The position numbers were made by a program, and so were the translations under genes. A stretch of DNA of 49,155 bases from a virus. Lineage: Duplodnaviria; Heunggongvirae; Uroviricota; Caudoviricetes. This document shows positions 4,909-48,109 of the stretch, piece after piece. Positions within the stretch are counted from its first letter, which is position 1. Each line of letters opens with the position of its first letter. The stretch lies in the IMG/VR virus record IMGVR_UViG_647533161_000005; one strand, written 5' to 3'. The notes under the pieces are model-generated. The model searched no databases. It saw nothing but the letters and a program-made list of their open reading frames with translations, and had not been told where the DNA came from.

Positions 4909-5384
4909 AATGGCAGCCTCTTGGTTGAGTATTAATAACTCACCACCAAGGTTTTCCACGACCATAAGGGTGGTGAGGCGTACAGGGGTGGAAATACCGG
5001 TCAACCAAGAATCCGGCCAGCCTTGCAGCTGCCCTGCACGCCCCACCATAATCTGAATGTGGCTGTGCTTGACGCATAAAAAAACCGCCTGAGCGCGGTT
5101 ATGCGCTTGATTGAATTCCGGGTTTCCACGCCCGGCACCCGTTTTATGAGGTGCAGGTGCACTATAATTCCACCCGTTCTGGTTTTCAATAGCTACATTC
5201 AACATTTTCTCTTACCTTTCATCACCGAAGTGAACTTTGTTGATGCGGTGCCTGGTGCCTCCAGGTGACGTTAACCAGTTAACAATTAACGCCGGATACA
5301 GAGAATCCACCCATAACACTGTTTTTGGTTTTAACTGTTCCGCGTGCGCTTAGCCGCATTCACCGCATCACAAAATTCACTTTA

Positions 5385-5437
5385 AAAAGGGTGGCAGAGC
5401 AGTCACGGAGTAGAACTGATGCCACCAAAGACTACAC
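5385..5437 (-). ncRNA. dicF: DicF-like small RNA with intrinsic terminator
   Basis: Minus-strand sequence ...CTTTGGTGGCATCAGTTCTACTCCGTGACTGCTCTGCCACCCTTTTT closely matches my recollection of K-12 DicF (TTTGGCGGTATCAGTTTTACTCCGTGACTGCTCTGCCGCCCTTTTT), with paired changes GGCGG to GGTGG and CCGCC to CCACC that keep the terminator stem. Ends are approximate. Confidence 0.6.
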
Positions 5438-5735
5438 ATGGGTATTGTGGCGGGGCTGTCACTTAAGCGTATGGTCAACCTGACAACCCGGTGCATTTTC
5501 TGGAGCAATGGAGGAAACCCCAGCCATACTTACCGCCGCGCCATTTCGCGGATTGCCACAACCGGAAGCGCACGATCGAATTAAATTTAACGACGACCTA
5601 TACAGAGAGACTAACTTCGCCGGGCGCTTTCGTGTTATGCCCTGACTTTTCAGGGATATATCCTTTTTAGTAAACTGTCAGTGCCGGATTCTTATCCGTG
5701 TCCGGCGCACGCACTCTACCTCACCTGTGAATAAA

Positions 5736-7727: not shown

Positions 7728-8739
7728 AAAGGTGAAAACCGGCAGTTCATCCAGTAAGTCTGTATTGACCTGGCTTGCTGATATGTGCGGTGCCGATTTG
7801 TGTGCATACCCGTCTGTATCTGCACTGGCAGAAGTAACGGAACTGAACAAAAAGACTGTGCAGGACAGCTTACGACACCTGATGGAGATTGGGTTAATTG
7901 TTGATACCGGTGAGAGAAAAGGCAGAACAAAGCAAATTGTGGTGTACCGACTTATCGGTGTAGAAGAAAGTGTTGCCGAGCCTGAATACACCCAAAAACG
8001 GGAGTCTTTAAAGGTGGGTAAAATTGGTGCTGTTAATAAAAACAGTACCGAAAATGGTTATGTTTCAGCACAAAACAGACCCAAAAACGGAACTCTTAGC
8101 TGCATGGAAAATAACCAAAGACACCCAAATTTTCCATCAAAGACACCCAAAAACGGATCACGGAACCCAAAGGAACCCAAAGATCTAAACCCCACACATA
8201 ACGCACGCGAGAGTGCTCCGACCAGTGAGCAGGAAGTTTTGTCGTTACAGGCAGCACCCCTTGTATTCCTGGATGGCCTGAGCGAACCCATCGGAAAATT
8301 TCCGATGACCGATAGCTGGTATCCGTCACGGGATTTTCGACGACGGGCTGCGTTGTGGGGGATGGCTTTGCCGGAGACAGAATTTACACCTGCTGAACTT
8401 GCCGCCTTCCGGGACTACTGGGCAGCGGAGGGGAAAGTGTTTACGCAGATTCAGTGGGAGCAGAAATTCGCCCGTCACGTAAATCACGTCAGGGCGCAGG
8501 TTAAACCAGTCAGCAAGGGGGTAAACCATGCAGCAGCACCAGGTGGCACCGCATCACGGGCAGTTCAGGAAATTCGGGCAGCACGTGAGCAGTGGGAACG
8601 TGAAAACGGATTTATCAGCGACGGAAACGGTCTGGAAGCTGTGGGAACTCATGGGGGAGGTTTATTCGAACCGCTGGACCCAGAAGAACGGGGCCGCACC
8701 TTCGAAGCTCTGGATTGCACAGATTGGCGCGATGACTGA
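7699..8739 (+). CDS. Replication initiation protein (N-terminal HTH, DnaT-like C-terminal region) containing an internal iteron array
   Basis: ATG at 7699 gives MSIDALRWAKKV... with a winged-HTH-like N-terminus. The ACCCAAAAACGG-type repeats lie inside the gene, as lambda ori lies inside O. Confidence 0.75.
   Translation: MSIDALRWAKKVKTGSSSSKSVLTWLADMCGADLCAYPSVSALAEVTELNKKTVQDSLRHLMEIGLIVDTGERKGRTKQIVVYRLIGVEESVAEPEYTQKRESLKVGKIGAVNKNSTENGYVSAQNRPKNGTLSCMENNQRHPNFPSKTPKNGSRNPKEPKDLNPTHNARESAPTSEQEVLSLQAAPLVFLDGLSEPIGKFPMTDSWYPSRDFRRRAALWGMALPETEFTPAELAAFRDYWAAEGKVFTQIQWEQKFARHVNHVRAQVKPVSKGVNHAAAPGGTASRAVQEIRAAREQWERENGFISDGNGLEAVGTHGGGLFEPLDPEERGRTFEALDCTDWRDD
7985..8190. repeat. Iteron array, probable phage origin of replication
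   Basis: Direct repeats acacccaaaaacgg (about 7988), gacccaaaaacgg (about 8078), acacccaaaaacgg (about 8143) plus degenerate copies (acacccaaatttt, aacccaaagg, aacccaaagatc). Confidence 0.55.
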
Positions 8740-9193
8740 GCAGCAAATCCGACAGGTCTGCCGCCAGTGCATGGACCGCTGCCGGGCGGGTGAAACATGG
8801 CCTCCGGACCTGGCTGAGTTTGTGGCGCTGATTTCAGAAAGCGGGGCCAATCCATTTGGCCTGACGGTGGATGCTGTGATGGAGGAGTACCGCCGCTGGC
8901 GTGATGAGTCCTGGCGATATGACGGAAGCGACAAATATCCGTGGCCTCAGCCTGTGCTGTACCACATCTGCCTCGAAATGCGTACCAGAGGGATTGAGCG
9001 CCAGATGACGCAGGGTGAGTTAAAACGACTTGCAGAACGGCAACTGACGAAATGGGCAAAGCATGTTGGTAACGGGATGAGTGTTCCGCCAGTGCGACGA
9101 CAACTGGAAGGGGCGAAACACCCGCAAGGGCCAACGCCAATTGAACGGCTGAAACAGGAATACGAACGCCGGAAGGCAGCTGGTTTTATTTGA
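8528..9193 (+). CDS. Replication protein P family (helicase loader)
   Basis: C-terminal two thirds align with my recollection of lambda P (..FVALISESGANPFGL.., YPWPQPVLYHICLEMR.., KRLAERQLTKWAKHV..). AAGGGGG sits 6 nt upstream of the ATG at 8528; an alternative start is the ATGA overlap at 8732. Confidence 0.7.
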   Translation: MQQHQVAPHHGQFRKFGQHVSSGNVKTDLSATETVWKLWELMGEVYSNRWTQKNGAAPSKLWIAQIGAMTEQQIRQVCRQCMDRCRAGETWPPDLAEFVALISESGANPFGLTVDAVMEEYRRWRDESWRYDGSDKYPWPQPVLYHICLEMRTRGIERQMTQGELKRLAERQLTKWAKHVGNGMSVPPVRRQLEGAKHPQGPTPIERLKQEYERRKAAGFI

Positions 9194-13643: not shown

Positions 13644-13901
13644 ATACAGCGAACGCCATTGGTTTAGTTGGATATTTACTGTGCCGGACAAAAACGGTTT
13701 GCGGGGAAATCTTAGTTAAGTAGAATAACTGCGGGTGCTTGAGGCTATCTGTCTCAGGCATGAACACCAAAAGGCAGATAGAGAAAAGCCCCAGTTAACA
13801 TTACGCGTCCTGCAAGACGCTTAACATTAATCTGAGGCCATATCTATGCGACACATAGAGATTAGCCTCTTACGGACCGAAAGGTCAAGGAGAAGCAGGC
13901 T

Positions 13902-14057
13902 ATGAAGCAGCAAAAGGCGATGTTAATCGCCCTGATCGTCATCTGTTTAACCGTCATAGTGACGGCACTGGTAACGAGGAAAGACCTCTGCGAGGTACGA
14001 ATCCGAACCGGCCAGACGGAGGTCGCTGTCTTCACAGCTTACGAACCTGAGGAGTAA
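13902..14057 (+). CDS. hok: Hok/Gef-family type I toxin
   Basis: 51-aa product MKQQKAMLIALIVICLTVIVTALVTRKDLCEVRIRTGQTEVAVFTAYEPEE, matching HokD/RelF as I recall it. Below the 60-aa cut-off of the supplied ORF track. Confidence 0.85.
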   Translation: MKQQKAMLIALIVICLTVIVTALVTRKDLCEVRIRTGQTEVAVFTAYEPEE

Positions 14058-14150: not shown

Positions 14151-14411
14151 TATTTTCAACGCATTTGAAGTTCTGGACGGTGCCGGAATAGAATCAAAAA
14201 TACTTAAGTAGCGCGCAGGGATAAGAGGGATGGTCCCTTAAAGGGGAGAGCTAATTATCCGGAAGGATTCTGATGATGAACATCGAAGAACTGCGTAAAA
14301 TTTTTTGTGAAGATGGCCTCTATGCTGTGTGCGTTGAAAATGGAAATATTGTTAGCCATTACCGCATTGTGTGTTTGCAAAAAATGGGGCTGCGTTAATT
14401 AATTTTGTGGA

Positions 14412-14593
14412 NNNNNNNNNNNNNNNNNNNNNNNNNNNNNNNNNNNNNNNNNNNNNNNNNNNNNNNNNNNNNNNNNNNNNNNNNNNNNNNNNNNNNNNNN
14501 NNNNNNNNNNNNNNNNNNNNNNNNNNNNNNNNNNNNNNNNNNNNNNNNNNNNNNNNNNNNNNNNNNNNNNNNNNNNNNNNNNNNNNNNNNNNN
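14412..14593. other. Assembly gap (182 N) with duplicated flanks
   Basis: N-run; 14071..14411 is repeated at 14594..about 14937 with homopolymer-length differences. Confidence 0.9.
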
Positions 14594-14796
14594 GGAGAAA
14601 TCCCTCGCCACCTCTGATGTGGCAGGCATCCTCAACGCACCCGCACTTAACCCGCTTCGGCGGGTTTTTGTTTTTATTTTCAACGCATTTGAAGTTCTGG
14701 ACGGTGCCGGAATAGAATCAAAAATACTTAAGTAGCGCGCAGGGATAAGAGGGATGGTCCCTTAAAGGGGAGAGCTAATTATCCGGAAGGATTCTG

Positions 14797-16822: not shown

Positions 16823-17504
16823 CCAGTATTTACAGTTTGTTCGTGAGCAACTCATGATTGCCACTGCAGATCTCAGTGGGTCGACAAAATGCCAGCTGGA
16901 AGCCTGGCAGGAAAATGCCCTGTTCGATACAGGGCGTTACAGACGCAAAAAAATTCGTTACCGCGATGAGGTAACCGGAAAAATGATCACGCGGGATAAT
17001 CCCCCGATCCAGGGTAAACAATCACTGGCGAAAGGCTCATCAATTGCGCTGGTCAGTCCTGTTGAGTTTGCAACATCATCGTGGCGGCGTGCTGTTCTGG
17101 AACTGGAAGAACATCAGAAGGCGTGGTTGTTGTGGTGTTATGGCGGAAACATTTGCTGGGAGCATCAGATCGCGATAACGCAGTGGGGGTGGAGTGAATT
17201 TAAAACTCAGTCCGGCTCCAGAAAAATTGCAGTGAAAACGCTGGAGCGTGTGAAGAAGTTGATCTGGCTGGCGGCACAGGATGTCAGAGGATGGGTTACC
17301 GGGTGTGAGGTCTACCAGAGACAGGAGCTTGCCAGACTGTGTGGAGTTAAGCCTGATAACTGGAGCCATAATTATGCGAACTACTGGCGTGAGATGTGCG
17401 ATATTTTTAAGCGCCTCGATAGAGAATCCTTGATTTGCTCCGTGAAAATAAGAGCGCAACAAAAAGCGACCTTTTCACGACGAGATATTGCAAAAGTCAA
17501 TTAA
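16815..17504 (+). CDS. Late-gene antiterminator Q family protein
   Basis: Position directly upstream of a tR'-like terminator and the lysis cassette, and overall resemblance to Q-type antiterminators of Qin/DLP12-like prophages. ATG at 16815 overlaps the rusA stop. Confidence 0.7.
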   Translation: MNNQYLQFVREQLMIATADLSGSTKCQLEAWQENALFDTGRYRRKKIRYRDEVTGKMITRDNPPIQGKQSLAKGSSIALVSPVEFATSSWRRAVLELEEHQKAWLLWCYGGNICWEHQIAITQWGWSEFKTQSGSRKIAVKTLERVKKLIWLAAQDVRGWVTGCEVYQRQELARLCGVKPDNWSHNYANYWREMCDIFKRLDRESLICSVKIRAQQKATFSRRDIAKVN

Positions 17505-17593
17505 ATCGCGTATGTTTCGTATAAATCTGATATTTTGCCGATTTTGTACGTGATGGCAAAGTAAGAAAAAACCACCGCCAGGTGGTTTTTTTT
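17505..17593 (+). promoter_or_regulatory. Putative late promoter (PR'-like) region with tR'-like intrinsic terminator (17569..17593)
   Basis: Intergenic region after Q with TATAAAT and TTGCCG elements and the hairpin accacc-gcca-ggtggt followed by T8. Confidence 0.5.
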
Positions 17594-17716
17594 ATGTCCG
17601 AAAATCGCGTCAGTACAGTAAACGCGCTGGTGGTTGCGAATACGGGTCTTTCAGCTTGCCGGCTTTTTCGACAAGAGTTATTGGTATGTCACGTTAACCG
17701 GAAAAGGGAAAAAGAC

Positions 17717-17914
17717 ATGCTAAAACAGCAGGATATGACAGAAGCCGCCAGAGTGGTGTTTAATGAATTAAGCGTTACCGACCCGGCGACAGTCAGGGAG
17801 ATTGCACAGAATACTTACCTTTCACGCGAACGCTGCCAGTTAATACTGACCCAGCTTGTTATGGCGGGTCTGGCAGACTATCAGTTTGGTTGTTACAGAC
17901 ACCTTCAGTCCTGA
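17717..17914 (+). CDS. Small hypothetical protein, possibly DNA-binding
   Basis: 65-aa ORF MLKQQDMTEAARVVFNELSVTDPATVREIAQNTYLSRERCQLILTQLVMAGLADYQ... with AAGGGA upstream, followed by its own terminator. Confidence 0.45.
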   Translation: MLKQQDMTEAARVVFNELSVTDPATVREIAQNTYLSRERCQLILTQLVMAGLADYQFGCYRHLQS

Positions 17915-17927
17915 AGGCTTTTTTATT
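17902..17927 (+). terminator. Rho-independent terminator
   Basis: Hairpin ccttcag-tc-ctgaagg followed by cttttttattt. Confidence 0.6.
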
Positions 17928-18228
17928 TGTGGTAAATGGGCGGCTGGTGGGTGTGGTGGTTGTTGCTTTCCCGTTGCTGAAAAAGAAAACGCCAGACTGT
18001 TAGCCGGGTATCAGTTAGCGGGAGAAATTTTTAAATACTTCACAATTCAGGCGGTTGACTGTTGTCTGGTTTGCGGGGAGTTTGTTAAAAGAAACTGGCA
18101 TGGTGAATCCCCCTGTGCGGAGGGGCAATCAGCGAGTAGGTATATGGGATAATCGCGGATTCAGGTGCTGGTACTGAATTCACCGGGAGGCACCCGGCAC
18201 CATGCAATGGCACATAGCGCCACTCTCC

Positions 18229-18255
18229 AGCCCCTCTCCGGAGGGGCTGTTTATA
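18229..18255. terminator. Hairpin terminator downstream of the minus-strand gene 18284..18619
   Basis: Hairpin agcccctc-tccg-gaggggct. Confidence 0.5.
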
Positions 18256-18283
18256 TTGATTTTGTCAGATGTGAGTAAACTCC

Positions 18284-18619
18284 TTATGGACTTTGTTGTT
18301 TTAGCCCATAAGGACATATTTGCAGAGTGCAACGGTTATTAAAGCATTCATTCAATACGTTATCTGTATTTGTAGGGCATTCCTGGCTGTTTTTGATTAA
18401 ATTCCAGAATGTTTTATTGAATGGTACTACGTTGTAAATGGTTACAGGTAGCACTTTGTTATTGAGCATGATACCTGTGTGAGTCAGTGTAAATATACTT
18501 TCAGGAGGTAAGAAAGCATCCGATTGATACCAGATTATTAATTTTATTTTACTCCATATGACTGAAAAAGATATTCCGCATGATGGCTGGATAACTGTAT
18601 CAATCACAATCCACTTCAT
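18284..18619 (-). CDS. Hypothetical protein encoded antisense to the late operon in an AT-rich island
   Basis: 111-aa ORF with hydrophobic N-terminus ([30 protein letters not shown]), an AT-rich upstream region (18620..18860) and a hairpin just past its stop. Confidence 0.5.
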
Positions 18620-18879
18620 TTAGTTTCCTTGTTTATGCCTTGCTGGTGATGTTCTGAAAAGTATAAATGATATTTTTGATTGTAAACCATAGAGCAGAAT
18701 TATTTTTCTGATGTTGTTTATTGTTTATTTAAATGCAGGGTGGTTTATATCTCGTCTTGTAGTTTATCCATGCATATCTGCTTGATGATGAGGTTTTTAT
18801 TTAAGGTATGGTTTTGTGTTTTTTCTGTATTACATGTCAGGTATTTTAAAGAATCATTTTTCAGATGGTGGAAAGAACC

Positions 18880-19068
18880 ATGGCATTTAAACACTATGAT
18901 GTTGTCAGGGCGGCGTCGCCGTCAGATCTTGCGGAAAAGCTGACACATAAACTGAAAGAGGGCTGGCAGCCGTTTGGTAGTCCGGTGGCCATAACCCCTT
19001 ATACCCTGATGCAGGCGATTGCAGCAGAAGGTGATGTGGTGGTCAGTGGTGCAACTGAGCCGGAGTGA
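18880..19068 (+). CDS. DUF1737-like small protein commonly found upstream of holins
   Basis: MAFKHYDVVRAASPSDLAEKLTHKLKEGWQPFGSPVAI... is typical of this family. Confidence 0.65.
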   Translation: MAFKHYDVVRAASPSDLAEKLTHKLKEGWQPFGSPVAITPYTLMQAIAAEGDVVVSGATEPE

Positions 19069-19375
19069 TACTACGTCATCGTACTGGCCCGGCATTCCAG
19101 GCCATAAAAGACGGTCTGGCAGTGGGACTAAATGCACTGACGCTGACGGATATTACCAAAAATGCAACGTATGGCGTTGAGATAGAAAGTCTGGTGCTGG
19201 AGATAAATGCACCGGCATCATCATAAAAAGTGAGCCAGTCAAATGGAAGGTATCGTTAAACTCACCGGTAGTGTCAGTGGGTCGTCTGAGACGCCTGCAT
19301 GAGTTATCAGAGCCATCAGTACTTAACTGGTGGCTTTTTTATTGTTGTCAGCTTCCGGATAACGGGAGACGGGGT

Positions 19376-19591
19376 ATGTACCAGATGGAAAAAATCACAA
19401 CAGGTGTGTCATACACCACGTCAGCGGTGGGAACGGGCTACTGGTTCCTGCAGTTGCTGGACAGGGTTTCCCCGTCTCAGTGGGCGGCAATAGGCGTGCT
19501 GGGGAGTCTGCTGTTTGGGCTGCTGACATATCTGACTAACCTGTATTTCAAAATCAAAGAGGACCGGCGTAAGGCGGCGCGGGGAGAGTAA
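19376..19591 (+). CDS. S: Class II holin, phage 21 S-like (pinholin) with dual-start motif
   Basis: [71 protein letters not shown] resembles S21 as I recall it; Met1 and Met4 give 71/68-aa forms. Confidence 0.85.
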
Positions 19592-19595
19592 AGTG

Positions 19596-20486
19596 ATGAA
19601 TAAAAAATATGAACTGGTTGTTAAGGGGATAAATAATTACGGGGATAAGGTTACTGTTACTGTGAAGTCGGAAGGTGACGGGCAAGCGTCGCTGTTGTTG
19701 CCAGATGTGGCGATTAGTCTTGACCGTACTGAAGGTGCCACGCTGGAGTTTTACGAAGCTGAGGCGAAAAAGCAGGCGAAGCAGTTTTTCATGGATGTTG
19801 CTGCCGGGTTATGTGAATGGAACGAACCGTTGCCGGAAAAGCGCCCCGTAATTTTAGAGGCGCAGGATGTGTTGATAACCTACAAAGGAAAGCTACCGGG
19901 AAGAATTACTTGTTCTCTGAAGATGCCGCCGTCAACACTGCGGTCAGAAAAAGATGATGTTGAATCACGTATTGAAAAACTGGAGAGCTACGTCGTTGAG
20001 CTGAATAAGAAATGGTCGATATTGGTGCCTTCTGGCGATGAAAAGCAGTTTGCTGCGTTTGACGATTATTGTCGGAAAGTGATGAGCAGAAATCTCGCAG
20101 AGTGTTTCAGTATTCATAATGATAATTTCAGTGACCCGGAATGGGAGTGTAACCGGCCATCCTTTGTTGTATCCGGTGATGCTGGGAAAATAACCATCTC
20201 AGAAAATGGGAAAGTAACACCTCCATCGCACCAGCACAGTGAGGAGCTCATTGAATTTGCCATTGATTACCTGAAGAACAATAAAAAGCAGGGGCTGATG
20301 AAGCGCGTTGGCCGTTGCATGGGATATCTTCAGGTAGCCGCTGAGATTGAAGCGCTGGCCAGTGGTGCTGATAAGGATGCAATTGTGCGGGAGGCTCTTC
20401 TTCGTGATTTTAATACTCCACCCTTTAAAAAAGGGCCGGCTTACTGGCTTCATCCGGGGCTGACTTATCTTAAAGTGCGTATTTAG
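19596..20486 (+). CDS. Hypothetical protein inserted between holin and endolysin
   Basis: 296-aa ORF with GGGGAGAG upstream of the ATG; visibly lower GC than its neighbours; no recognisable family. Confidence 0.65.
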   Translation: MNKKYELVVKGINNYGDKVTVTVKSEGDGQASLLLPDVAISLDRTEGATLEFYEAEAKKQAKQFFMDVAAGLCEWNEPLPEKRPVILEAQDVLITYKGKLPGRITCSLKMPPSTLRSEKDDVESRIEKLESYVVELNKKWSILVPSGDEKQFAAFDDYCRKVMSRNLAECFSIHNDNFSDPEWECNRPSFVVSGDAGKITISENGKVTPPSHQHSEELIEFAIDYLKNNKKQGLMKRVGRCMGYLQVAAEIEALASGADKDAIVREALLRDFNTPPFKKGPAYWLHPGLTYLKVRI

Positions 20487-20522
20487 TGGGCCAGGGACAG
20501 CGGCTGAATATTTAATATATCC

Positions 20523-34062: not shown

Positions 34063-37000
34063 TCTTGTTATTGACCTGAGTCTGGATGCGGTCCGTTTCG
34101 ATGAGCAGATGAGCCGGGTAAGGCGTCATTTTTCAGGTCTGGATACTGACGCCAGAAAAACCGCAACTGTCGTTGAGCAGGGGCTGAGCCACCAGGCGCT
34201 GGCTGCACAAAAAGCAGGGATTTCCGTCGGGCAGTATAAAGCGGCCATGCGAACCCTGCCCGCACAGTTTACGGATATCGCCACGCAGCTTGCCGGTGGT
34301 CAGAATCCCTGGCTGATCCTGCTGCAACAGGGCGGTCAGGTGAAGGACTCCTTCGGCGGGATGATCCCCATGTTCAGGGGGCTTGCCGGTGCGATCACCC
34401 TGCCGATGGTCGGGGTCACCTCGCTGGCGGTGGCGACAGGTGCGCTGGTGTACGCCTGGTACCAGGGAGATTCCACGCTTTCAGCGTTTAATAAAACCCT
34501 GGTTCTTTCCGGTAATCAGTCCGGACTGACTGCCGATCGCATGCTGACGCTCTCCAGAGCCGGACAGGCCGCAGGGCTGACGTTTAACCAGGCGAGTGAG
34601 TCACTGGCAGCCATGGTGAATGCCGGTGTGCGTGGTGGTGAACAGTTTGATGCCATCAACCAGAGTGTCGCGCGTTTTGCTTCTGCATCCGGTGTGGAGG
34701 TGGACAAGGTTGCAGAGGCTTTCGGAAAACTGACCACTGACCCGACGTCGGGGCTGATTGCGATGGCGAAGCAGTTCCATAACGTGACGGCGGAGCAGAT
34801 TGCGTATGTTGCTCAGTTGCAGCGTTCCGGCGATGAAACCGGGGCATTGCAGGCGGCGAACGAGGCCGCAACGAAAGGGTTTGATGACCAGACCCGCCGC
34901 CTGAAAGAGAACATGGGCACGCTGGAGACCTGGGCAGACAGGACAGCGCGGGCATTCAAATCCATGTGGGATGCGGTGCTGGATATTGGTCGTCCTGATA
35001 CCGCGCAGGAGATGCTGATTAAGGCAGAGGCTGCGTTTAAGAAAGCAGACGACATCTGGAATCTGCGCAAGGATGATTATTTTGTTAACGATGAAGCGCG
35101 GGCGCGTTACTGGGATGATCGTGAAAAGGCCCGTCTTGCGCTTGAAGCCGCCCGAAAGAAGGCTGAGCAGCAGACTCAACAGGACAAAATGCGCAGCAGC
35201 AGAGCGATACCGAAGCGTCACGGCTGAAATATACCGAAGAGGCGCAGAAGGCTTACGAACGGCTGCAGACGCCGCTGGAGAAATATACCGCCCGTCAGGA
35301 AGAACCTGAACGAAGNNNNNNNNNNNNNNNNNNNNNNNNNNNNNNNNNNNNNNNNNNNNNNNNNNNNNNNNNNNNNNNNNNNNNNNNNNNNNNNNNNNNN
35401 NNNNNNNNNNNNNNNNNNNNNNNNNNNNNNNNNNNNNNNNNNNNNNNNNNNNNNNNNNNNNNNNNNNNNNNNNNNNNNNNNNNNNNNNNNNNNNNNNNNN
35501 NNNNNNNNNNNNNNNNNNNNNNNNNNNNNNNNNNNNNNNNNNNNNNNNNNNNNNNNNNNNNNNNNNNNNNNNNNNNNNNNNNNNNNNNNNNNNNNNNNNN
35601 NNNNNNNNNNNNNNNNNNNNNNNNNNNNNNNNNNNNNNNNNNNNNNNNNNNNNNNNNNNNNNNNNNNNNNNNNNNNNNNNNNNNNNNNNNNNNNNNNNNN
35701 NNNNNNNNNNNNNNNNNNNNNNNNNNNNNNNNNNNNNNNNNNNNNNNNNNNNNNNAGGATGATTATTTGTTAACGATGAAGCGCGGGCGCGTTACTGGGA
35801 TGATCGTGAAAAGGCCCGTCTTGCGCTTGAAGCCGCCCGAAAGAAGGCTGAGCAGCAGACTCAACAGGACAAAAATGCGCAGCAGCAGAGCGATACCGAA
35901 GCGTCACGGCTGAAATATACCGAAGAGGCGCAGAAGGCTTACGAACGGCTGCAGACGCCGCTGGAGAAATATACCGCCCGTCAGGAAGAACTGAACAAGG
36001 CACTGAAAGACGGGAAAATCCTGCAGGCGGATTACAACACGCTGATGGCGGCGGCGAAAAAGGATTATGAAGCGACGCTGAAAAAGCCGAAACAGTCCGG
36101 CGTGAAGGTGTCTGCGGGCGATCGTCAGGAAGACAGTGCTCATGCTGCCCTGCTGACGCTTCAGGCAGAACTCCGGACGCTGGAGAAGCATGCCGGAGCG
36201 AATGAGAAAATCAGCCAGCAGCGCCGGGATTTGTGGAAGGCGGAGAGTCAGTTCGCGGTACTGGAGGAGGCGGCGCAACGTCGCCAGCTGTCTGCACAGG
36301 AGAAATCCCTGCTGGCGCATAAAGATGAGACGCTGGAGTACAAACGCCAGCTGGCTGCACTTGGCGACAAGGTTACGTATCAGGAGCGCCTGAACGCGCT
36401 GGCGCAGCAGGCGGATAAATTCGCACAGCAGCAACGGGCAAAACGGGCCGCCATTGATGCGAAAAGCCGGGGGCTGACTGACCGGCAGGCAGAACGGGAA
36501 GCCACGGAACAGCGCCTGAAGGAACAGTATGGCGATAATCCGCTGGCGCTGAATAACGTCATGTCAGAGCAGAAAAAGACCTGGGCGGCTGAAGACCTGC
36601 TTCGCGGGAACTGGATGGCAGGCCTCAGGTCCGGCTGGAGTGAGTGGGAAGAGAGTGCCACGGACAGTATGTCGCAGGTAAAAAGTGCTGCCACGCAGAC
36701 CTTTGATGGTATTGCACAGAATATGGCGGCGATGCTGACCGGCAGTGAGCAGAACTGGCGCAGCTTCACCCGCTCCGTGCTGTCCATGATGACAGAAATT
36801 CTGCTGAAGCAGGCAATGGTGGGGATTGTCGGGAGTATCGGCAGCGCTATTGGCGGGGCTGTTGGTGGTGGCGCATCCGCGTCAGGCGGTACAGCCATTC
36901 AGGCAGCTGCGGCGAAATTCCATTTTGCGACCGGAGGATTTACGGGAACCGGCGGCAAATATGAGCCAGCGGGGATTGTCCACCGCGGGGAGTTTGTCTT

Positions 37001-47525: not shown

Positions 47526-48109
47526 TGGCATTCAGAATGAGTGAACAAGCACGGACCATAAAAATTTATAATCTGCTGGCCGGAACTAATGAATTTATTG
47601 GTGAAGGTGACGCATATATTCCGCCTCATACAGGTCTGCCAGCAAACAGTACCGATATTGCACCACCAGATATTCCTGCTGGCTTTGTGGCTGTTTTCAA
47701 CAGTGATGAGGCATCGTGGCATCTCGTTGAAGACCATCGGGGGAAAACGGTTTATGACGTAGCGTCAGGGGACGAGTTATTTATTTCTGAACTCGGTCCG
47801 TTACCGGAAAATGTTACCTGGTTATCGCCGGAAGGGGAGTTTCAGAAGTGGAACGGCACAGCCTGGGTGAAGGATACGGAAGCAGAAAAACTGTTCCGGA
47901 TCCGGGAGGCGGAAGAAACAAAAAACAACCTGATGCAGGTAGCCAGTGAGCATATTGCGCCGCTTCAGGATGCTGCAGATCTGGAAATTGCAACGGAGGA
48001 AGAAACCTCATTGCTGGAAGCCTGGAAAAAGTATCGGGTGTTGCTGAACCGTGTTGATACATCAACTGCACCTGATATTGAGTGGCCTACGAACCCTGTC
48101 AGGGAGTAA
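47525..48109 (+). CDS. tfa: Tail fiber assembly protein (Tfa)
   Basis: [59 protein letters not shown]... matches lambda Tfa; TAATG overlap with stf. Confidence 0.9.
47940..48109 (+). repeat. Direct repeat copy 1 (tfa 3' end)
   Basis: About 170 bp that recur at 48985..49155 with roughly 85-90 percent identity by eye. Confidence 0.7.

Follow-up and report, generated by a model that had tools for sequence, protein, structure and literature searches.

It is very probable that the stretch between the tR'-like terminator (about 17594) and the holin start (19376) is a mosaic accessory interval of a prophage resident between potC and potB, and that the active cargo of this interval is iraL, the gene of an anti-adaptor that acts on the sigma-S adaptor RssB. 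The interval measures 1.78 kb, in agreement with the figure of about 1.8 kb given in a first-pass annotation of the same DNA. That annotation had treated it as an AT-rich moron site and had stated that none of its products is recognisable; the latter statement fails, since the 111-aa product of the minus-strand gene passes the NCBIfam model NF007393 and is identical to a protein already described, IraL. The features of the interval are collected in Table 1. The term window is used below for the whole 49,155-nucleotide stretch that was analysed.

Table 1. Features between Q and the holin gene (positions in the window)
Feature	Position	Strand	Evidence or remark
Q, 229 aa			PF06323; 690 nt
Putative late promoter pR'	17488..17526	+	-35 TTGCAA 17488..17493, -10 TATGTT 17511..17516, spacing 17; read by eye
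tR'-like bidirectional intrinsic terminator	17564..17594	.	13-bp stem between A-run and T-run; -16.7 kcal/mol, z -6.2
65-aa conserved phage protein, phrog_331, winged-helix-like (weak but consistent)	17717..17914	+	PGAP CDS WP_001309418.1; phrog_331 E 5e-36
Hairpin with T6 run over the stop codon of the 65-aa gene, possible terminator	17902..17925	+	weak: -6.8 kcal/mol, z -1.4
DUF3927 C-terminal fragment, 24 codons	17929..18003	+	Pfam DUF3927 profile positions 32-53 of 53 only
STnc100 sRNA gene (Rfam RF02076) with Rho-independent terminator	18069..18258	+	132.4 bits, gathering threshold 47
STnc100 terminator hairpin	18228..18249	+	-20.3 kcal/mol, z -4.2; 0/200 shuffles as good
iraL, 111-aa RssB anti-adaptor of the IraM/IraL/RssC family	18284..18619	-	NCBIfam; identity to CFT073 IraL
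iraL 5' UTR, 33 nt, start 18652	18620..18652	-	published 5' RACE
AT-rich iraL promoter/regulatory region	18653..18879	-	96.9% identity to CFT073
DUF1737 ORF, N-terminal remnant of a nanS-p-type 9-O-acetyl esterase gene	18880..19068	+	Pfam DUF1737 E 3e-17
53-aa ORF, C-terminal remnant of the same esterase gene	19065..19226	+	tblastn to NanS-p residues 610-640, E 6e-6
P21-type class II holin, right end of the accessory interval	19376..19591	+	Pfam PF04971 E 7e-33; PGAP

The prophage and its late region

To judge from its sequence, the window is a lambdoid E. coli prophage inserted between potC and potB, a site that it shares with the "potB island" prophage of UPEC CFT073. Positions 17500..18900 are 100% identical to strain 7/2 and to many other E. 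coli strains, and the coordinates of the coding sequences called by PGAP in strain 7/2 coincide with the open reading frames of the window wherever they were compared. By the annotation of that strain the prophage looks complete, with the gene order integrase, excisionase, exonuclease, dicB, repressor/cro, replication genes, hokD, rem, DUF968, RusA, Q, lysis genes, terminase, head, tail, lom and tail fibre. Runs of N occupy 14413..14593 and 35316..35755, corresponding in the strain 7/2 annotation to hokD and to the inside of the tape-measure gene respectively. A tRNA scan across the window found none, so the tRNA cluster of Stx phages is absent. No stx open reading frame was found in 17505..19375, and on that ground the prophage is not classed as Stx-converting.

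The late promoter pR' is putative, a weak sigma-70-like element placed by its likeness to the lambdoid pR'/qut architecture. It would straddle the Q stop codon, with its -35 falling within the Q reading frame, and a further -10-like element, TATAAA, follows its -10 at 17520..17525. The candidate scores 8/12 and is therefore under the threshold of the promoter scan. Judged by eye, the tR' hairpin lies approximately 70 nt past TATAAA, an arrangement that would suit a short transcript from pR' with the size that StxS has in Stx phages. Rfam matches over the pR'-tR' segment (STnc370, Phe_leader, isrK and RNAI) were rejected, all being below gathering and driven by the terminator.

To the right of the holin gene a 297-aa open reading frame (19593..20486) precedes the lysozyme gene. 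It is a full-length member of phrog_1085, made up of an N-terminal DUF1327/YdfR part and about 190 extra residues, and is represented in PGAP by a truncated YdfR pseudogene only. The segment 19932..20516 is missing from the Stx2 phage compared, and 19900..20520 is covered to at least 80% in 493 E. coli genomes.

Identity of the minus-strand gene

The 111-aa open reading frame previously proposed on the minus strand is present, and comparison with the published sequence identifies it as iraL, a gene that has already been characterised. The protein scores 162 bits against NF007393 (anti-adapter protein IraM; cut-off 121), with residues 1-110 on profile positions 1-113 of 114, and so belongs to the family. 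It is 100% identical to IraL of UPEC CFT073, with which it shares the RefSeq accession WP_000871291.1. By the criterion of PMC4045071 a gene counts as iraL if its full coding region is 95% or more identical to that of CFT073; here the two coding regions differ at two nucleotides, both synonymous. A PDB match was obtained to the solved IraM chain 8twd (E 9e-32), a Pfam search with the protein gave no match, and in PHROGs the entry for IraL is phrog_4407, which is labelled 'unknown function'. It has been shown in CFT073 that IraL raises both the level and the stability of sigma-S in log phase (Hryckowian et al. 2014, mBio; PMC4045071). The same study established that IraL contacts only the N-terminal (receiver) domain of RssB, that it sits on the CFT073 potB island and that K-12 is without it (PMC4045071).

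The product name given by PGAP, 'anti-adapter protein IraM', together with the name of NF007393 and a local identity to K-12 IraM of 62%, might suggest that this gene is IraM proper, which in K-12 is an anti-adaptor under the control of PhoP/PhoQ and is switched on by Mg2+ starvation. We consider this very improbable. NF007393 is a subfamily model that spans both IraM and IraL, and against the full identity to IraL stands an identity to K-12 IraM of 59.5%, which leaves the gene outside IraM sensu stricto, a name that would call for 95% identity or more to the K-12 gene as well as a promoter dependent on PhoP. When K-12 iraM and its flanks were compared with the window, only the coding sequence aligned, at 71% DNA identity, and the upstream regions gave no matches. 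A non-homologous promoter fits the different regulation that has been reported for iraM and iraL, the reported condition for the latter being log phase and its contact with RssB being confined to the N-terminal domain (PMC4045071). The PGAP name thus hides the log-phase allele, IraL.

Together with its upstream region iraL is present in 1446 of 5426 complete E. coli genomes (27%), usually as a single copy. Identity over this segment is at least 99% in 799 of them, 95-99% in 620 and 90-95% in 27.

Promoter, transcription start and base composition

The 5' RACE sequence of the CFT073 iraL mRNA was published as ACATCACCAGCAAGGCATAAACAAGGAAACCA (PMC4045071). The first 30 nt of that end, ACATCACCAGCAAGGCATAAACAAGGAAAC, match the minus strand of the window exactly (30/30) at 18652..18623, which places the start and fixes the length of the untranslated leader as given in Table 1. 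The -10 element, TATACT, occupies 18665..18660 (-13..-8) and is intact relative to CFT073, while a -35-like GGTTTA/TTTACA is found at 18681..18688. The 260 nt upstream of iraL, at 96.9%, exceed the identity to CFT073 of at least 96% that was asked of a shared promoter, and start and -10 coincide; from -100 to +33 there are three SNPs, at -1, -28 and +31. In K-12 the segment from -100 to +33 plus the coding region was enough for iraL expression (PMC4045071), and with the coincidence of the CFT073 start at 18652 the gene has the promoter of its own that is expected of a moron. The log-phase RACE end of CFT073 also bears out the earlier proposal that the gene is transcribed against the late operon. 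The sequence AAATGATATTTTTGATT (18666..18682), between the -10 and the -35, shows by eye a loose likeness to a Fur box, and higher IraL has been reported in a fur mutant of CFT073 (PMC7157518). Neither a Fur box nor a PhoP box, both looked for by eye, is put forward for this promoter. At the other end of the gene, 35 nt separate the iraL stop codon from the hairpin at 18228..18249, which on the minus strand is not followed by a U-tract.

The composition of the gene is as distinctive as its promoter. GC content is 0.345 in the iraL coding sequence and 0.304 in 18620..18879, against 0.515 for the window, and outside the island no N-free segment of equal length falls so low. The low GC is confined to about 18260..18880, that is to iraL and its promoter region, which are the lowest-GC real sequence of the prophage. 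The 65-aa gene (0.485) and the STnc100 segment (0.553) are ordinary, so the AT-richness formerly ascribed to the whole island holds for iraL and its upstream region and not for the remainder. GC3 is 0.34 in iraL vs 0.41-0.68 in 15 other genes. Apparent minima of GC at 14300..14600 and 35300..35750 were discarded as products of N-masking, not AT-rich DNA. Composition unlike that of the flanks is joined by patchy presence, as expected of a moron, the Qin prophage of K-12 being without iraL. The view that iraL is transcribed as an independent, compositionally foreign unit is thus supported, and rests on the mapping of the CFT073 5' RACE end to 18652.

STnc100 beside iraL

A small RNA gene had been overlooked in the first-pass annotation. 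The STnc100 covariance model is matched over its full length (positions 1-206 of 206) by a gene of 190 nt. The hairpin that had been reported at 18229..18255 as a second terminator is real and strong, at the slightly different position in Table 1; it does not stand free but forms the 3' end of STnc100. On the minus strand PGAP has placed a partial 'hypothetical protein' pseudogene (18088..18213) exactly antisense to STnc100, probably as an artefact, the sRNA itself having gone unannotated.

STnc100 lies directly 3' of, and convergent with, an IraM-family gene in CFT073, Stx2_EH2201 and vB_EcoS-640R1, so that with the window the pairing of STnc100 with iraL or iraM is found in four phages. There are two STnc100 copies in vB_EcoS-640R1, and Stx2_EH2201 has a copy after stx2B; beside K-12 iraM none was found. 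Earlier work placed STnc100 75 nt downstream of stx2 (PMC12370729) and detected transcription of the copies in EHEC EDL933 by RNA-seq and, for one of them, by Northern blot (PMC5331693). The Hfq-bound sRNA EcOnc27 overlaps the STnc100 copy after stx2B (PMC12711010), and a kinship of STnc100 with PasD has been proposed (bioRxiv 10.64898/2026.05.13.724894). Other Rfam sRNAs of the window are C4 antisense RNA, isrK and DicF on the minus strand near dicB (4966..5440), sok beside hokD (13733..13904) and IS009 near the end of the tail-fibre gene (47868..48066).

The 65-aa gene and the mosaic structure of the interval

The 65-aa plus-strand gene of the first-pass annotation was likewise found, as the first open reading frame after tR' and with coordinates equal to those of the PGAP coding sequence in strain 7/2. 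PHROGs labels its family 'unknown function'. A protein search returned 274 homologues, with 76-100% identity among the 120 matches listed, from Escherichia, Shigella, Salmonella, Klebsiella, Citrobacter and Buttiauxella, and the NCBI name of these is often "TrmB family transcriptional regulator". The 65-aa module is present in 2142 of the 5426 E. coli genomes (about 40%), in at most seven copies per genome.

The Pfam TrmB model gives 19.4 bits with the 65-aa protein itself, below the cut-off of 25.6; among 25 family members DprA_WH was matched in 20 and TrmB in 19 at E<=0.01. An AlphaFold2 model built on an alignment of 25 sequences has three helices with a poor pLDDT of 67, a Foldseek search of the PDB with this model gave nothing below E 3.6, and a profile search of PDB sequences gave chance-level matches only. 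The assignment as a winged helix therefore rests on Pfam matches below threshold, and the indications for it are weak but consistent. As to the terminator claimed for this gene, a hairpin and T-run are indeed present on the plus strand at 17902..17917, although the hairpin is a weak one that 20 of 200 shuffles equal.

Taken together, three terminator-like hairpins on the plus strand between Q and the holin gene (the tR' hairpin and those at 17902..17917 and 18228..18249), and eleven terminator-like sites vs 2.3 expected from shuffles, could be taken to indicate that the interval serves the late operon chiefly as a cis-regulatory leader, in which terminators are read through by Q-modified polymerase and open reading frames are incidental. 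We think this quite improbable: two of the three hairpins can be assigned to identifiable genes (the Rfam model of STnc100 includes its terminator; the hairpin at 17902 is weak), iraL has documented expression and function of its own, and related prophages differ freely in what they carry here.

The interval does not form a single AT-rich island; it is a mosaic in which three modules are accompanied by remnants of genes. On the left, the module shared with Stx2 phages starts at a joint at 17568, within the tR' hairpin. From there to 17954 the DNA is 89-94% identical to many Stx2 phages and to phiP27; in Stx2_EH2201 the module follows a different Q gene, of 381 nt vs 690 nt in the window. The joint between the 65-aa module and the STnc100/iraL module falls at approximately 17945..17954, where homology to Stx2 phages stops (17954) and near-identity to CFT073 begins (about 17950), inside the DUF3927 gene. 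CFT073 carries this gene in full (43 aa), and the window has only its 3' end.

Beyond the iraL promoter lie two open reading frames that are the two ends of one internally deleted nanS-p-type esterase gene. When NanS-p, the 645-aa esterase of a Stx2 phage, was taken as reference, the DUF1737 reading frame, which PGAP flags as incomplete, aligned by tblastn to residues 1-88 with 68% identity and lay on positions 1-58 of 634 in phrog_143. The 53-aa reading frame lay on positions 582-632 of the same family. An intact NanS-p would have about 640 aa and an esterase domain; here only residues 1-88 and 610-640 are represented.

The full 1.4-kb combination was found in 175 genomes only, vs 1446 with iraL and 2142 with the 65-aa module. 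The 65-aa module was probably acquired separately from the STnc100/iraL module, and the DUF3927 fragment and the two nanS-p halves are remnants of decay. Gene remnants, the 'unknown function' labels of phrog_4407 and phrog_331 and the want of a Pfam match for the 111-aa protein are what speaks for an uncharacterised AT-rich moron with unrecognisable products, possibly spurious open reading frames in a decaying intergenic region. As an account of the interval this is scarcely credible. NCBIfam, the PDB and the literature identify the 111-aa protein, so that such a description survives for the 65-aa gene only; and iraL with its promoter persists in over a quarter of complete E. coli genomes, while the 65-aa protein crosses genera.

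Possible action of the cargo

For the gene of the identical protein in CFT073 the literature shows leftward transcription, opposite in direction to the late operon, during exponential growth from a sigma-70-type promoter of its own, the start corresponding to 18652. The product engages the receiver domain at the N-terminus of RssB, this adaptor is then unable to deliver sigma-S (RpoS) to ClpXP, and sigma-S builds up in log phase (PMC4045071; for the mechanism also the IraM-RssB structure paper PMC10844676). The same would be expected in a lysogen carrying this prophage, whose general stress response might thus be pre-armed. In such a lysogen tR' and the downstream terminators would be predicted to spare iraL collision with late transcription, and read-through driven by Q on induction would oppose iraL.

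A further proposal, which we consider improbable, is that STnc100 and iraL form a conserved convergent pair acting as one switch around the one hairpin common to both, with the 65-aa protein perhaps an unrecognised regulator of the late operon. Were this so, read-through from either side, or late transcription driven by Q, would yield antisense RNA to the other gene, and prophage induction or expression of the sRNA would shut off the stabilisation of sigma-S by IraL.

As iraL, its promoter, its location on the potB prophage and STnc100 have all been published, the present analysis carries small weight as discovery. Its use lies in corrections: the gene named IraM by PGAP is better called IraL, the label of the PHROGs family can be amended, and the interval can be described as a Stx2 toxin locus without stx and without nanS.

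Comparison with known systems

The closest counterpart is the IraL locus of CFT073, which has the same 111-aa protein, potC/potB prophage site, mapped start and -10 element. The flanks are also the same, from the 3' end of DUF3927 through STnc100 to the DUF1737 remnant and beyond, with near-identity over about 17950..19300. The left neighbours differ, CFT073 having a 273-aa antiterminator, IS200, three tRNAs and the full DUF3927 gene where the window has a 229-aa Q of PF06323, tR' and the 65-aa gene.

K-12 IraM (b1160) is a member of the same protein family, encoded by a small minus-strand gene whose upstream DNA is very AT-rich (GC 0.26), and as K-12 iraM adjoins prophage e14 it is also phage-associated. 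It differs in its non-homologous promoter and in the absence of an adjoining STnc100. According to the literature it is regulated by PhoP and Mg2+ and contacts both RssB domains; an IraM-RssB structure has been described (PDB 8twd; PMC10844676).

The Stx2 phages Stx2_EH2201, 2851 and 1717 have the same order of Q, tR', 65-aa gene, STnc100, minus-strand IraM-family gene, nanS-p headed by DUF1737 and holin. In Stx2_EH2201 the full interval reads Q, 65-aa gene, methylase, three tRNAs, stx2AB, STnc100, iraM-type gene on the minus strand, nanS-p and holin, and its alignment to the window skips the segment from the methylase through the tRNAs to stx. The 65-aa gene of the Stx2 phages has 92% DNA identity to that of the window and 18040..19037 of the window aligns to Stx2_EH2201 at 70%, whereas the methylase, tRNAs and stx2AB have no counterpart and nanS-p is cut to its head and tail. 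By this comparison the window has, in this interval, the framework of the toxin locus of Stx2 phages, from which methylase, tRNAs and stx are missing.

The comparison also reveals a third, mostly unannotated allele of the IraM family after stx2B in many Stx2c and Stx2a phages. This allele, of 107 aa, is encoded on the minus strand immediately behind stx2B and STnc100 (8475..8798 of Stx2_EH2201) and differs from the IraL of the window, with 72% amino-acid identity to IraL and 65% to K-12 IraM. It occurs in 41 phage records, nearly all of them Stx2c-, Stx2a- or Stx2-converting (2851 and 1717 included), and is unannotated in most of the records among those listed; no paper describing it was found in the literature searched.

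The Qin prophage of K-12 shares the backbone, with hokD, rem, ydfU/DUF968 and Q on one side and an essQ-type holin, ydfR and lysozyme on the other, and it also shares the trait of having its cargo partly on the opposite strand. The cargo itself is unrelated, consisting of ynfS, cspF, cspB and ynfU (cold-shock paralogues) and not of iraL and STnc100. With cspB, cspF and ynfU at this position in Qin, and a methylase, tRNAs and stx2AB in Stx2_EH2201, the earlier reading of a moron site is upheld, and the differing contents in Stx2_EH2201, K-12 Qin and CFT073 mark the interval as a genuine variable cargo site.
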